Source of the DNA: a virus
Lineage: Duplodnaviria > Caudoviricetes
IMG/VR virus record: IMGVR_UViG_3300028805_000109
Span: 2,478 to 66,477 of that record
Length of the DNA: 64,000 nt
Reading direction: 5' to 3' (one strand)
Below are positions 22,908 through 29,300 of the stretch, piece by piece. Each line of letters begins with the position of its first letter. Positions within the stretch are counted from its first letter, which is position 1. Under the pieces are notes generated by a model. The model was not told the DNA's origin. It did no database searches and saw only the letters and a program-made list of their open reading frames with translations. Both the position numbers and the translations under genes were made by a program.

Positions 22908-23081
22908 TTATCTAAACATATCAAAAAATGAATAGTAATCCATTTTAACTTTATGCTGTCCTTTTGAGTTTCTATACACTTTATAACCCGATTTCTTAAC
23001 ATTATCTAAACTCTGTAGATATAACTTAGGATTAGTATAATACAGTTTATCGAGTCGCTCTTCTATTTCCGCAGTTGTCAT
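22908..23081 (-). CDS. Hypothetical protein, 57 aa (missing from the ORF track)
   Basis: MTTAEIEERLDKLYYTNPKLYLQSLDNVKKSGYKVYRNSKGQHKV...; GAGGGTG RBS. Confidence 0.65.
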   Translation of the reverse strand: MTTAEIEERLDKLYYTNPKLYLQSLDNVKKSGYKVYRNSKGQHKVKMDYYSFFDMFR

Positions 23082-23084
23082 ATT

Positions 23085-23981
23085 TCACCCTCTCTTATTA
23101 TTCTGCAAGATTATACCAAACATTTCATCCATAGTTAAATCTCCAATAGGATAATGAATTTGTGATAGCGAATTTTTAGCAAAATAACCATCTACAAGAT
23201 TGATAAAAAATGTAAATGTACCATCATCACCACCATAAAATTCATCCCACTGTTCTTCTGATAATAACCTTCTAACATATAATTGGTCTAATGATAAGTT
23301 ATCGAAACTTATCACCTTGAAATGCGGTATAATATCCTTTAAGTTGCCATATAGCCAATTCCGATTTCTTTTAAGGTCGACACTCTTATTTATCTGATAG
23401 CTTAAACCTCTACCAATCGTCTTATATCCTAGAATCAAAATTTTAAGATTATGGTCTTTCAAAATTCCATACTGCTCCTTAGTAAAGATACCATTAATCA
23501 CATGGATTACAGCGTTTGGATATTTACTAATTCTCTCGATAAATTCCTCAGTAGGATTAGATAATGAAACGCCAATACCATATATCAAATTTTCCTTATA
23601 CATCTGCTGAATAACTTCTTCGTGTTTCATAAAATGATTCTGATTGATGGTTACGTTTGTAATAATATTCTTTGATTTAAGAAATCTAAGAAAATCAAAG
23701 AAATCATTAGGAATTGGAAAGTTTAAGTTTAAAGCCATTTCCGTACCTTCATGTAATGTATCAAGAAATTTCCAACCATTCAACTTACCAAACTTACCAT
23801 TCACTGTGCAATTAGCGTAACACATTTCACATCCATTATCGCATCTATTAGATACGTGAACATCGACATTTTCAGCAAACGATGGCTCAAAAAAATCATC
23901 TTCTGTTTCACGAATTCTAGTACCATCTGAATATAAAGTTGTTATTAAATTTCCATTCTGATATTTTGCTATTGGTCTCAT
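23085..23981 (-). CDS. Radical SAM protein
   Basis: CX3CX2C cluster motif CDNGCEMC; no obvious SPASM tail. Confidence 0.88.
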   Translation of the reverse strand: MRPIAKYQNGNLITTLYSDGTRIRETEDDFFEPSFAENVDVHVSNRCDNGCEMCYANCTVNGKFGKLNGWKFLDTLHEGTEMALNLNFPIPNDFFDFLRFLKSKNIITNVTINQNHFMKHEEVIQQMYKENLIYGIGVSLSNPTEEFIERISKYPNAVIHVINGIFTKEQYGILKDHNLKILILGYKTIGRGLSYQINKSVDLKRNRNWLYGNLKDIIPHFKVISFDNLSLDQLYVRRLLSEEQWDEFYGGDDGTFTFFINLVDGYFAKNSLSQIHYPIGDLTMDEMFGIILQNNKRG

Positions 23982-24015
23982 TATCTTAATCCTCTCTATT
24001 TTTTATTTTTTAATC

Positions 24016-24378
24016 TTAATCGTGTCCGTAATATCCAAATGCTATCATTTCATCACCACTTGGCGTAGTGAATGTTTCATCAAAATCTTCAAACCAACCA
24101 TCGGCGTTATACTCATCATACTTATAAATACCTTCGCTATTTAAATACTCTTCAAAAGTATCATACCACTGATAGGCTTCTTCATTGTATTTTGCTCTTA
24201 GTTCTTTGATTTTTTCGTCATCTGTTGTTATGAACTGTTTTTCTTTCCCATTTCTCCACTTATTAAGCAGAGTTTCTCCATTCTGCCACTTATCATACTC
24301 TTCTTGTGTACAAATAGTCAAAGCATGAGTCATTGAGCTGTTTGTTTCAAATACGCCCATTCTAATCTGTTTCTTCAT
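24016..24378 (-). CDS. FETNSS-motif protein B
   Basis: MKKQIRMGVFETNSSMTH. Its SD appears displaced by the TnpB element; an in-frame GTG lies at 24417 inside the element end. Confidence 0.8.
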   Translation of the reverse strand: MKKQIRMGVFETNSSMTHALTICTQEEYDKWQNGETLLNKWRNGKEKQFITTDDEKIKELRAKYNEEAYQWYDTFEEYLNSEGIYKYDEYNADGWFEDFDETFTTPSGDEMIAFGYYGHD

Positions 24379-24385
24379 TATGATT

Positions 24386-25763
24386 CTGCTACTCAAAATG
24401 TGTGTAAATATACTCACATTGAGAAAATTCCTACTTCTTCCTATATGCTTTCGTTAATCTTCAACTACTCACAAGTTCTTGTATAGTCCATAGGCGTTAC
24501 TTCCCGACTTAGCCATCGGTAGTTTTGTATTATTTAAGCTATCTTATAATCTTTACAATCTCTTAAATTAAGACTTGCATTATAATCTCTGTCTGCTACA
24601 TATCCGCAAGTACAGATATACGTTCTGTCTGATAACTTTAAATCTTTCTTTATATTTCCGCAACAATGACAGATTTTAGAACTTGGAAACCATCTATCCA
24701 CAATTCTTAACTCAATATTGTTCTGATGGCACTTGTTGGTTAATTTAGTTCTAAACTCATATAATTTCTGTTGACTTATTGCTTTTGAAAGATGTCTATT
24801 TTTCATCATTCCAGATATATTCAAGTCCTCAATAGTTATGTAAGATAGCTTGGCTTTCACTATCTTTGCTATTGTCTTATTGATATAGTCTGTTCTAATG
24901 TTATCTAGCCTATGATATATCCTTTGGACTTTTCTTTTTTGCTTCTGTATATTCTTTTGAGTAGACTCTCCTTTCTTTTTATTCTCATACATACGTGACA
25001 GACTTCTCTGTTCACGCTTTAATTTCTTTTCAAGTCTTTTAACCTCTTTAGACTTATTTATATTTGCAAAGACTTGTTTATCACTACAGATTGCTAAATC
25101 CTTTATTCCTAAATCAATTCCTACCCCTTGATTAGTATTTTTCTCAACTTCTTTTTTAGGAACATCTATCAGCACAGATACATAGTATCTTCCTGCCTTT
25201 TCAGATACAGTTCCGCTTTTGATTACTAAACCGCTTTTAGTTGTAGGGATATAACCTTTTTCTTTGAGCCTTACCCATCCAAGTGTAGGTATCTTTATCC
25301 TGTGTCTTTCACAATAGATAATTGCTTTAGCATCCGTTTTTACAAAATACATCTTTACATCTGAATTCCCCTTTTTCTTGAATTTGGGAAATCTGCTTTG
25401 CTTTTTGAAAAACTTTTGATAAGCACTATAAGCGTTTGTAATACTTTGCTTTACGGATTTGCTACTAACTTCTTTTATCCAAGACAGTTCTTCATGTTGT
25501 GGTAAATAATCATTATTTAGCCACTTACTAAAATCCATAGCAGATTGAAGTTTTTCTCCATGCTCATGCCTTTCTTTTTGTGTGGCAAGATAAAAGTTAT
25601 ATATGTATCTGCAAGTGCCTATTGTTTGATTTATCTTTTGTATCTGTGTTTGCGTAGGATTGATTTCAGTTTTGTAACTTACAAACAATTAGCATCACCA
25701 TCCTTATACACATTCGTCTATGTTTACTCACATATTTCTATGTTTTCGATTGCTTAACAGTCA
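24386..25763 (-). mobile_element. Non-autonomous IS607/IS200-605-family element carrying only tnpB
   Basis: Removing 24386-25763 restores TAA-AGGAG-aatcata-ATG. Repeated TGTGAGTA motifs lie in both ends, and a structured ~150-nt 3' region (omegaRNA-like) follows tnpB. Confidence 0.8.
24534..25688 (-). CDS. tnpB: RNA-guided endonuclease TnpB
   Basis: N-terminal HTH (TEINPT...IGTCRYIYN); RuvC-I GIDLG, RuvC-II IEDL, zinc finger CHCCG...CTCG, RuvC-III DRDYNA. All catalytic acids are present. Confidence 0.95.
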   Translation of the reverse strand: MFVSYKTEINPTQTQIQKINQTIGTCRYIYNFYLATQKERHEHGEKLQSAMDFSKWLNNDYLPQHEELSWIKEVSSKSVKQSITNAYSAYQKFFKKQSRFPKFKKKGNSDVKMYFVKTDAKAIIYCERHRIKIPTLGWVRLKEKGYIPTTKSGLVIKSGTVSEKAGRYYVSVLIDVPKKEVEKNTNQGVGIDLGIKDLAICSDKQVFANINKSKEVKRLEKKLKREQRSLSRMYENKKKGESTQKNIQKQKRKVQRIYHRLDNIRTDYINKTIAKIVKAKLSYITIEDLNISGMMKNRHLSKAISQQKLYEFRTKLTNKCHQNNIELRIVDRWFPSSKICHCCGNIKKDLKLSDRTYICTCGYVADRDYNASLNLRDCKDYKIA

Positions 25764-25768
25764 CTCCT

Positions 25769-26320
25769 TTAATTATATTTATAAAATTCTCTATGTGGGT
25801 AATCCACATTAATTACGGGTACAATATCTTCATTATCGTTACCTGTCTGAATATAGCTCTGTTCTGAAAATAAATAATTCATTAAGATATCCTCGTCAGA
25901 ACAAACTGTATTAACAAATTCCTCTAATTCTCCTACATGGTCAATTCCGCTTTCGTCCAAACAATCAGTATAACACACTATCTTCTTTTCCCAGTTAGAT
26001 ACAGTCACACCGAAATCAGCGAAATATACGTCAATATTGTGCTTCTTTAGTGTATCATTAATGAACTGTAATCTCTTAATCATCTGACTGTACTGTGGTT
26101 TCTTTAGAACTCCACCAAGCTGTATAATGGCTGTGTATAAATAATTAGCTCTATCAAATCGGCTAGTATATTTATCTAACTCCCAACCATAAGAGCCAAA
26201 TTCAAAAGAAACCGAACTAGGTAAGTTTTTAATGTGGTTTAACTCTTGTGACGCTACACAAATTGCATGAACACTTGAACTATTGGTTTCAAAACAACCT
26301 TGTCTAATCTGCCTTTTCAT
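25769..26320 (-). CDS. FETNSS-motif protein A
   Basis: MKRQIRQGCFETNSSSVH; paralogous N-terminus to 24016-24378; AAGGAG RBS. Confidence 0.82.
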   Translation of the reverse strand: MKRQIRQGCFETNSSSVHAICVASQELNHIKNLPSSVSFEFGSYGWELDKYTSRFDRANYLYTAIIQLGGVLKKPQYSQMIKRLQFINDTLKKHNIDVYFADFGVTVSNWEKKIVCYTDCLDESGIDHVGELEEFVNTVCSDEDILMNYLFSEQSYIQTGNDNEDIVPVINVDYPHREFYKYN

Positions 26321-26336
26321 ATTCTCTCCTTTCAAT

Positions 26337-26386
26337 AAAATAATCGTTTACAATACTTATTGTATCATAAACGATTACTTTGTCAA
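26337..26386 (-). promoter_or_regulatory. Promoter/terminator overlap at the dnaE stop
   Basis: TTGACA overlaps the TGA stop; TG-n-TACAAT lies in the loop of a TAATCGTTTA/TAAACGATTA hairpin followed by a U-run. Confidence 0.65.
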
Positions 26387-29300
26387 GCTATTTCTTCTGT
26401 TTTTGCAAAATATTTAATTATGTGTTCAAATTCACCTGTATTATACCATTTGCCATCTTCGTTCAATCTCTTCTTTGGCTTCTTCTTAAAGGCTATCTGA
26501 ATTATATTACCTTGCTCACACTTATACTCATCCCACCATTTGTAATCTACTTTAAACGCACCTTGTTTAGTCTTATCATTTAATCTCTGTACAGTGAGAA
26601 TCGGTGTACCATATTTATTAGTATCTGTTTTTAATACCACATAATACCTATTATCCTTACAAGCATATTCTTTATCAGTATATCCAAGATAAGTAGCTTC
26701 ATATCTAATATGGTCAAGGTTTGATATAGGCTTAATTTTATGCTTATTTGCCTCATATAGGGCGTTAATTAAGCCGAGGTTATCAATTCCCCTTAATTGT
26801 TTTTCTGTGACGTTCTGAGTGTATTTTTTAGCGATTTCAAGGGTATCTAAATCTAATTTAGGTATAGATAACACTTTCGCCGCTCCGAACTGTATATATA
26901 AATTTCTAAGATATAGTAGTTCATTTACAGTACCAAACTCACTGAAAAAGTCTATATGTATTAAAATATCAAGTACCTTACTGTTTACTATTTTCTTATT
27001 GTTATTATCCTTTAAAGACATAATATCTTTTAATAATTCAATAAAATTATTATAATGATTGTCTTTTAATGTATATAAAGCACTACCTACATTTTTACCT
27101 ACATCTTTTATAGATGATAAGCCTTTATATATACTATTATCATCTTTATTAATTGTATAATCGTTAGATGAATACCTAAATTTTGGGGATATTATTTTTA
27201 TCCCCTTAAATGTAGCCAATTTAGTTCCATTTAATATATCTTCATCTGACTTAGAACAATTTAAAAATGCACATACAAATTCCAGCGGATAATAATATCT
27301 TAAATATGCACAAGTATATGTAATCATAGAATAGCCTGTCGCATGGTTGAACCCAAACATATAACTAGATGCATCTTCAATAATTCTCAAAAATTCTTTT
27401 GCTTCTTCTTCTGCTGTATTTCTATCTTTATCGGACTTATTACAATATCCTTCGAGAATACTCGGCATTGCCGCATCTAATCTATCCTTTTGTTTACGTC
27501 CAATGGCACGTCTTACATTATCAGCTTCGCCACCACTAAGACCACATATCTGCTGTAAAAACGCTATAATATCTTCTTGATATACAAGATACCCATGATT
27601 ATGTTCAAGTAGCTTATCAATAAGTTCTGATGGATTTTTATGTTCTTTAAGGGCGATAAGGTCATCTCTATAAGATGCTCCACTAGGACGTATTGCCGCA
27701 TTACAAATTGTAACATCATCAAGTGTAAAATCCATACCTTGTGACTTAATATTGTGATAATACTGTTTAAGTGTATTAAATGCATAATCACCCTCGAACT
27801 GAAATACTCCAATAGGATTACTTACCATATCAGCATACACATTTTGGTCATTAAAATCAATCTGATATGATTTAGGATATTCAATATTGGCATATTGGCA
27901 AGCATCTCTTATAATACCCACATTCCTCAAACCCAAAATATCATACTTAACTAAGCCTATTTCATGTACTTCTTCCATGTTAATAGGTAATATTCTTTGT
28001 CCGTCATCTCCTAAGAACATACCATAATTCTCAACTAACGGAGATGGATAACAACAAATAATACCTGCGGGATGCTGTGATTGGCTAATAGCACAACCTA
28101 ATAATCCATCAAAATAATAAAATAATTCACTATACTGTTTTCTTGCTTGCTCTTTAGAGTTATCATATAACTCTTTTATTTCTGCTACTTTTGTTAGATT
28201 ATAAGGATTTTCATTATCATATTTTTTATCGTCCTTAGATAAGCCATTATCTAATCTCCATTTAATAGCTAATGCTCTACCAATATCGTCTATACAACCT
28301 TTGTCTGCCAATGTTCCTATAGAAAGTATATATGCAGTATGTTCTAATCCAAAACGATTAATAATATAATCATATACAGTCTGTCTTTGGTCATCATATA
28401 CATCAATATCTATATCTCCGATTTCCTTTCTGTATTCATTGGCAAATCGAGAAAATATAGTATGATGTTTTACAGGGTCTACATCGATAATATCAGATAT
28501 ATACGCAACCGTACTTCCCGAACAACTTCCTCTAGCATATCCAAATTTAATGCCATTAGCTTTATTATCAGATACAAGTTCTGACATAAATAGCATAAAT
28601 CCTATCATATCAGTTTTTTTGAATACACGCATTTCTTCTTTAATATTATCTATATATTTCTGTTTTTGAGATTTATCAAGTATTCCTTTATTATACTTCT
28701 CTTTAAAATTCTTTTTTAATTTATCCCATAGTACCTCTTCATCGTTAGGATAAAGATACGGATATTTGATTTTTTTATCTAATACCATATCATAAACACT
28801 ATCTGCCATTACATTTGTATTATCAATAGCTTGTAGTATTATATCCATCGGTAAAGAATCTTGCTCGGTAAATTTCTTAATTAAACCATCATAAGACTGA
28901 TATGTTAAATCACAATCTTCTTCATATGAGTATGTAATCCCCTTAGATAACATAAGTATCATACGACATTCGGCTTTATAACTATCTAAGCTATGAGTAT
29001 CAGTACCTACAATCAATGGTTTATTATATTTCAATGACATTTGATATAAGAACTTATTAAACGCAATCTGTTCATCAAAATTATGATACTGAATTTCGTA
29101 ATAATCATAGTGCTGTAATAATTCATGTAATCTCTTGCCTTTATACTGATTTAATGGAGATTGTACGCAAGCTGAGATTTTTATTACGTTATCACTAATA
29201 CCTAAAAATTCATCAAATGTCAATCTTGGCTTATAGTAAAAATGGTCTTTTTGATTGGATAGAAATACAAGGTTATTAAGTTCCTTAAAGCCATTTTCAT

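Follow-up and report, generated by a model that had tools for sequence, protein, structure and literature searches.

We focus here on a transposable element that separates a phage gene from its ribosome-binding site (RBS) in a 64,000-nt stretch of a virus (Duplodnaviria; Caudoviricetes), positions 2,478 to 66,477 of the IMG/VR record IMGVR_UViG_3300028805_000109, referred to below in its full length as the window. The element carries a TnpB gene followed by a predicted guide-RNA scaffold and lies between two phage genes, FETNSS-A and FETNSS-B. In the open reading frame (ORF) list all genes of the studied region are on the minus strand, and the features, from upstream to downstream, are the following (L-numbers are our handles for compared loci and contigs, X-numbers those for public runs).

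26359-26386, minus strand: promoter-like site TTGACA-16-TACAAT with a TG, upstream of FETNSS-A, by consensus match only
25769-26320, minus strand: upstream gene FETNSS-A, 183 amino acids (aa) from ATG 26320, of unknown function, from the ORF list
25764-25768, minus strand: AGGAG, Shine-Dalgarno (SD) sequence of the downstream gene in empty alleles and left-flank target-adjacent motif (TAM), from ten empty alleles
24386-25763, minus strand: the inserted element, 1378 bp, a tnpA-less IS607-family TnpB/reRNA element, from filled versus empty alleles
25689-25763, minus strand: left end of the element, 75 nt, non-coding, aligned with the left ends of L003/L004, L115, L116 and L118
24534-25688, minus strand: tnpB, TTG start, 384 aa plus stop, from Pfam and phmmer
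24386-24533, minus strand: region of the predicted guide-RNA (reRNA/omegaRNA) scaffold, 148 non-coding bases, from conservation and covariation
24428-24494, minus strand: RAGATH-18 motif within the scaffold, from Rfam RF03064
24366-24385, minus strand: predicted 20-nt guide/target AATCATAATGAAGAAACAGA, the first 20 nt past the conserved right end
24016-24378, minus strand: downstream gene FETNSS-B, 120 aa, of unknown function, from the ORF list

The limits of the insert are given by alleles of the same site that lack it. With a slash marking the junction, the left side reads TAA-AGGAG/TGACTGTTAAGC, the TAA being the stop codon of FETNSS-A, which abuts AGGAG, and the right side reads GAGTAGCAG/AATCATA-ATG, so that the spacer AATCATA and the ATG of FETNSS-B at 24378 follow directly upon the right end at 24386. 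An exact-protein look-up found the identical 120-aa FETNSS-B protein on 15 public contigs; ten were fetched, and nine of these (L082-L086, L088-L091) are without the insert and read ...AATATAATTAAAGGAGAATCATAATGAAG. A single further empty allele, L225, with the same joint AATATAATTAAAGGAGAATCATAATGAAG, came from one scan of metagenome_contigs. All ten empty alleles read TAA-AGGAG-AATCATA-ATG, AGGAG directly precedes AATCATAATG in each, and FETNSS-A is called as 183 aa in them. Their flanks are 97.6-99.7% identical to the window, with homology breaking at 25764 and at 24390/24386, and a contig of public run X3 jumps from 24385 to 25764, which skips 1378 bp. The insert is 25763..24386, with neither target duplication nor terminal inverted repeats and with a 2-bp AG ambiguity, since the left flank ends in ..GGAG and the element in ..GCAG. 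The AGGAG at 25768..25764 is flank and lies outside the insert; its retention in the empty alleles makes it part of the target, not of the element. An earlier interpretation of this DNA, the sequence-only reading, had drawn both junctions as they stand here, and the empty site that it rebuilt, AGGAG-7nt-ATG, was found exactly in all ten empty alleles when its proposed check for empty homologues was run. The span that it gave, 24386-25768, holds the element and also takes in the five flank bases AGGAG, the insert ending at 25763. Outside the window, one filled allele of this site was found (L087), 100% identical over 4497 nt and probably from the same assembly as the window. A megablast search of 23000..27500 against INPHARED phages gave no match, and a viral_contigs scan with the downstream protein gave no relative.

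Two other sites offer filled/empty pairs as well, namely AAAGGAG/AATAATG, in a phage with an 89%-identical tnpA-less copy, and AAAGGAG/GTACAAATTATG, in a gut phage with a full-length copy. Downstream-protein look-ups for the L034 and L060 sites returned nothing on record, and for the L014 site only filled alleles, with the odd left flank TTTTGGAA, were recovered. In the filled L104 the left junction is AAAGGA-T, against AAAGGAG in the empty L105, the last TAM base thus being changed beside the left end; the altered left flanks of L104 and of the related L014 may reflect core mismatch at integration or later mutation.

The tnpB product contains the Pfam domains HTH_OrfB_IS605, OrfB_IS605 and Cas12f1-like_TNB, and phmmer aligns it with 8iaz_A over residues 3-384 of both (E 3.6e-170). 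The entry 8IAZ is cited in PMC11061315 and is taken to be the ISFba1 TnpB cryo-EM structure of that paper, because the chain residues fit the paper's numbering with a 3-residue offset. All three RuvC acids, which the sequence-only reading had listed as kept, are in place at D192, E287 and D366 (D194/E290/D371 in ISFba1). The triad is kept in most aligned relatives, L005 having N at the third position and L012 being a 158-aa fragment. Furthermore, the TAM contacts N58, N59, K77, K80 and Y114 are kept (ISFba1 N61, N62, K80, K83 and Y117). The window copy is predicted to be an active nuclease.

The absence of tnpA was likewise called correctly: the element holds none, and only 75 nt separate the left junction from tnpB. 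In many viral and bacterial relatives (L005, L006, L014, L034, L040 and others) a MerR-HTH/Resolvase tnpA lies just upstream of tnpB, which assigns the family to IS607, not IS605, as had been proposed together with the shared 2-bp AG, and makes the window copy a tnpA-less derivative. It is a non-autonomous member of its family and not an autonomous insertion sequence. Three other identities were considered and rejected: an IS200/IS605 element with a Y1 TnpA, because the autonomous relatives carry a Resolvase/MerR tnpA and the flanks are AGGAG; an IStron, because the Rfam scan of 24000..26000 shows no group I intron and the left end is only 75 nt long; and TldR, a nuclease-dead repressor, because the RuvC triad is intact. 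Elsewhere in the same virus record, outside the window, a 307-aa open frame (G000:C1:302-598, L195) has an N-terminal Resolvase domain (76.6 bits); as a candidate IS607-type TnpA it was rejected, its catalytic domain being N-terminal, as in the ordinary serine recombinase/invertase type.

The left end contains TGTGAGTA at 25732..25725, a second ATGTG motif, and GGTGAT at 25699..25694, 5 nt before the tnpB start. The claim that TGTGAGTA repeats mark both ends is borne out, in that the three copies in the 64-kb window (25732..25725, 24473..24466 and 24418..24411) all lie in the element and on the same strand; the window-wide count is not above chance (2.48 expected), and about 0.03 copies would be expected by chance in the element when a single strand is counted (2.48 x 1378/64000 / 2). 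The virus record of 66.5 kb that holds the window contains one copy of the element.

Downstream of tnpB, the scaffold region matches the full RAGATH-18 model of Rfam (RF03064, positions 1-71) with 66 bits against a gathering score of 44.9 (E 2e-12), and nothing besides RAGATH-18 was found in the Rfam scan of 24000..26000 at E<=1. An alignment of 24 sequences supports two helices with 22 pairs, 14 of which show compensatory changes. The 3' end of the scaffold consists of a terminal stem-loop followed by ...TTTTGAGTAGCAG, finishing at 24386, and the alignment is near-invariant to this last base, up to which about 100 relatives are conserved and after which similarity stops. The end of homology at 24386 places the start of the guide at 24385, in agreement with the earlier proposal that the guide begins with the right flank. 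The predicted guide runs through the 7-nt spacer and the ATG into FETNSS-B, of which it covers 10 further coding bases. A programmatic test found AGGAG followed by a perfect 20-nt guide match in nine empty alleles, and the same was seen by eye in L225. In the filled allele, the target is preceded by AGCAG, not AGGAG, and the right-end tips at 101 sites are AGCAG (83), GGCAG (15) and AGCAA (3), with AGGAG at none. With AGCAG at the TAM position, the guide of the filled allele meets an altered TAM in that allele itself, so that its own nuclease should leave it uncut.

These assignments agree with what has been measured for the family. IS607 TnpBs bind RAGATH-18-derived RNAs with a 20-nt guide optimum, the TAM by strain is 5'-AGGAG in 18 of 22 and GAGGG in 4 of 22, and ISFba1 cleavage is lost upon any single TAM change (PMC11061315, Ren et al. 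2024, Cell Res). The TAM of about (A)GGAG that the sequence-only reading had predicted equals the one measured for the TnpB/RAGATH-18 family (PMC11061315), and its statement that the TAM of the window element is the RBS is correct and follows from the published TAM. The novelty is smaller than had been assumed there, because both the TAM and the RNA were already published.

The placement at ribosome-binding sites is shared by the family. We tallied 101 distinct right ends, 26 viral and 75 bacterial, from phages and Clostridia, and counted a right end as placed when it is followed, at a distance of 3-13 nt, by the start codon of an ORF no shorter than 50 aa. By this measure 80 of the 101 (79%) are placed, the share being 27% among all AGGAG that these loci carry on that strand (binomial P 5.6e-28); in a separate count, made with 63 of these sites, it was 12% for random positions in their loci. 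Of the 77 AGGAG in the window, 28 stand in SD position. Loss of insertions that landed in AGGAG within genes would be the simplest account of the surplus over the AGGAG background. The tally of upstream flanks that had been suggested as a check finds (A/G/T)GGAG closing the left flank at more than 20 independent sites among the relatives, and homology starts at (A/G/T)GGAG in the subfamilies of C. difficile, Clostridium sp. KNHs214, Proteiniclasticum, Butyrivibrio and Ruminococcus that have copies at multiple sites. The left-end consensus is AGGAG/(A)AAC(T)GTTAAG (window, L003/L004, L115, L116 and L118); BLAST of the window left end against the other loci matched only L003/L004, and the other left ends were placed by pairwise homology within subfamilies. 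The expectation that an SD-like TAM directs insertions to gene starts therefore holds at 80 of 101 independent sites, and insertion between RBS and start codon is a habit of the family because its target motif, AGGAG, is a ribosome-binding sequence. Two close relatives, L002 (92% aa in TnpB) and L115 (95% aa), have a right end with no start codon after it, and unrelated sequence takes the place of the left end in L002, reaching as far as the tnpB start; decay or capture may account for these copies.

The element has also travelled. At a different site, L003/L004 match it along its entire length with 89% nt identity, and copies at least 98.8% identical occupy other sites in gut metagenome runs (sheep, goat and others), which indicates recent mobility; one goat-gut contig reads AGGAG/.../AAGTTTAACATG. 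Run X3 contains both an empty phage allele and near-identical element contigs, and no X3 contig joins the element to the phage flanks. The closest bacterial TnpB copies are in Butyrivibrio sp. INlla21 (95% aa) and in a Lachnospiraceae metagenome-assembled genome (92%), and that Butyrivibrio also holds full-length IS607 copies with a left end resembling that of the window.

A human-gut phage site (contigs L019/L031/L107-L114 and L196-L224, upstream of TTGATAGATATG / TTGATAGATATGGCAG) adds an allelic series at the TAM/SD block itself, in which the nine bases preceding the target vary at equal length. The pristine form A(T/A)GGAGGAG is present in 13 of 26 empty viral contigs; AAGCAGGAG occurs in four empty contigs and TAGCAGGAG in six, so that 10 of the 26 carry (A/T)AGCAGGAG, i.e. 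(T/A)AGCAG instead of (A/T)GGAG. TAGTAGCAG is found at this site in two contigs, L109 and L111. The AGCAG forms equal the right-end tip of filled alleles and may have been left by homing that was not completed, by excision at an AG in an offset position, or by selection for resistance to TnpB; they are a possible natural example of drive resistance. At the window site only susceptible alleles were found. The element at the gut-phage site occurs in two registers 3 nt apart (L206 versus L107).

As for the neighbouring genes, FETNSS-A matches phrog_28997, of unknown function, and FETNSS-B has 278 homologues, none of them named, and matched no Pfam or PHROG family. The likeness between the two proteins is confined to their first 26 residues (MK.QIR.G.FETNSS..HA, 62% identical). 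The site at 26386..26359 scores 11 of 12 consensus matches and is the best promoter-like site of the region; the promoter scan found such sites no more numerous than in shuffled sequence, the left end gave nothing convincing, and a scan of 24000..26400 found no terminator-like sites. RNA runs X15-X20 contained 0.12-0.17 of the sampled words. Further downstream, a 298-aa protein (23981..23085, minus strand) with a CxxxCxxC-like motif matches phrog_16999, 'Fe-S oxidoreductase' (E 3.7e-30), and is probably a radical-SAM-type enzyme. In two empty alleles, L084 and L088, a gene for an N6_N4 DNA methyltransferase is added between those for the 298-aa and the 57-aa protein; the window (23085..22908) is without it, which shows module-level mosaicism among phages that are 98-99% identical.

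Taken together, we give a probability of about 0.85 to the reading that this is a non-autonomous IS607 element of ISFba1 type whose TAM is the SD sequence of a phage gene and whose TnpB targets empty alleles. A TnpA serine recombinase supplied in trans, likely by a full-length IS607 copy in a Butyrivibrio/Lachnospiraceae host, would have inserted the element into the phage by crossover at the AG that ends the AGGAG SD sequence. Transcription would come by read-through from the promoter-like site at 26386..26359, and the RNA that runs across the right end would take the following 20 nt, i.e. spacer, ATG and first codons, as its guide. TnpB with this RNA would then cut alleles in which AGGAG abuts the target, namely the empty alleles of related phages and the donor site after excision, and the element would be restored or spread when the cut is repaired from a filled copy. 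The filled allele with AGCAG would escape cutting. Homing between co-infecting phages is plausible on this scheme. The downstream gene would keep its coding sequence and lose its SD sequence, so that its translation would be reduced; the change from AGGAG to AGCAG, by reasoning, breaks the middle of the SD pairing.

Several observations weigh against this reading. Folded as a single sequence, the scaffold does no better than shuffles (z -0.52), its structural support coming from the Rfam model and from covariation. Its 3' flanking part measures 42 nt here and 64 nt in ISFba1 (PMC11061315). T118/D119 replace the TAM-contact asparagines N121/N122 of ISFba1, although relatives with T/D at these contacts are still flanked by (A/G)GGAG. 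Nor was a partner with tnpA and matching ends demonstrated for the host of this phage. Finally, ten of the 11 alleles of the site outside the window are empty, and this rarity of the filled allele means that the element has not swept, the sampling being small.

The rival explanations differ mainly in what they take the element to do. That AGGAG could be the first five bases of the element, an SD-like end carried along and not a target motif, is suggested by homology among copies at different sites, which always begins at or before AGGAG; empty alleles at three independent sites retain AGGAG and refute it, leaving this idea next to no credit. A translational switch, in which the right end provides a replacement start (GTG 24417 or TTG 24397) or otherwise regulates the downstream gene, is very improbable. 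Both codons are in frame with ATG 24378 with no stops between, and L004 happens to have the same frame, so that the earlier observation of an in-frame GTG with AGGA 11 nt upstream stands. Its use as a rescue start is not supported: the in-frame upstream start is not conserved, a hand tally of distances puts the required phase at 7 of 16 sites against about 5 expected, several in-phase sites run into stops (e.g. L014), the guide RNA has its paired terminal stem there, and the AGGA is 11 nt away from the GTG. The element could also be an inert relic that landed once and can neither move nor cut, its TnpB being intact only because the insertion is young. The lack of tnpA and the presence of the element in just one of 11 alleles at the site would fit; the full-length ORF, the catalytic triad, the retention of most TAM and RNA contacts and a scaffold conserved to the last base speak against it, as does the spread of the tnpA-less form (L003/L004 at 89% nt, L115/L116 at 95%/92% TnpB aa, and contigs at least 98.8% identical in several ruminant metagenomes), and we hold it unlikely.

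Interference competition has been shown for some phage homing endonucleases, and the element may in the same way serve the phage as a weapon, TnpB cutting co-infecting relatives that lack the insert. The perfect TAM and target in empty alleles of phages 98-99.7% identical would suit such a role, as would run X3, where the empty allele and the near-identical element contigs, unjoined to phage flanks, occur together, and the concept has been discussed for homing endonucleases and OMEGA systems (PMC13565253). A benefit to the phage is, on the other hand, indistinguishable in these data from a benefit to the element, and the element is rare at the site; we regard this explanation as doubtful, if less so than the inert relic. 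An extension of the preferred reading of an SD-targeted, non-autonomous element remains tentative, though it ranks above the phage weapon: the element may act as a gene drive aimed at ribosome-binding sites that cuts empty alleles during co-infection, swaps the SD sequence to AGCAG, lowers translation and selects for resistant alleles with a converted TAM. If true, the use of an SD pentamer as TAM would make the family such a gene drive.

What matters here is that the measured TAM of the family is a ribosome-binding sequence, so that about four-fifths of insertions in phages and Clostridia fall between RBS and start codon, sparing the coding sequence and yet stripping the gene of its RBS. No paper linking the AGGAG TAM to the SD sequence or to an RBS-splitting habit was found in the searched texts of the open literature, and the text of PMC11061315 contains neither 'ribosome' nor 'Shine-Dalgarno'. 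On TnpB homing in phage genomes, the literature search yielded the review PMC13565253 alone. The window site, with filled and empty alleles 98-99.7% identical and every empty allele a perfect target, furthermore provides a clean natural pair for testing TnpB-driven homing.

Taken by itself the element is unremarkable, being a copy without transposase from a published TnpB/reRNA family whose TAM, RNA and structure, as well as the role of TnpB in retaining IS607 elements, are already in print (PMC11061315; PMC10690162, Zedaveinyte et al.). With ISFba1-type elements it shares a TnpB of the same length, matched over its full length, the RuvC triad, a RAGATH-18 RNA after tnpB, a guide from the right flank, a left-flank TAM of 5'-AGGAG and a Clostridia/Lachnospiraceae background; it differs in being tnpA-less and phage-borne, in having T/D for two TAM-contact asparagines and in the shorter 3' part of its scaffold. 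The CboIStron/IS607 of Clostridium botulinum follows the same serine-recombinase logic, with a TAM that is also the transposase target, a 2-bp core at both junctions, scarless excision and a TnpB that promotes retention, and it avoids self-cleavage by a comparable one-base change at the tip (TCGG vs TGGG, as AGCAG vs AGGAG here) (PMC10690162). CboIStron, however, has the TAM TGGG, the core GG, a group I intron and insertions inside genes (PMC10690162), whereas the family of the window element avoids coding sequence through the spacer between SD and start, and no intron was found in it. IS200/IS605 elements such as ISDra2 also combine TnpB with a 3' omegaRNA, a left-flank TAM and a right-flank guide, and tnpB-only derivatives are common among them, but they rely on a Y1 (HUH) TnpA, single-strand transposition, AT-rich TAMs (TTGAT) and subterminal hairpins (PMC8612924), whereas the relatives of the window element use a serine recombinase. 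Finally, the phage homing endonucleases, such as Seg/Mob of T4, resemble the window element in placing a nuclease gene between conserved phage genes, polymorphic among close relatives, and in being expected to cut the allele that lacks it during co-infection, homing to co-infecting phages being discussed as a concept for them and for OMEGA systems (PMC13565253). In the window element, unlike the homing endonucleases, a guide RNA together with a 5-nt motif would recognise the target, and self and non-self would be set by the presence or absence of the insert.

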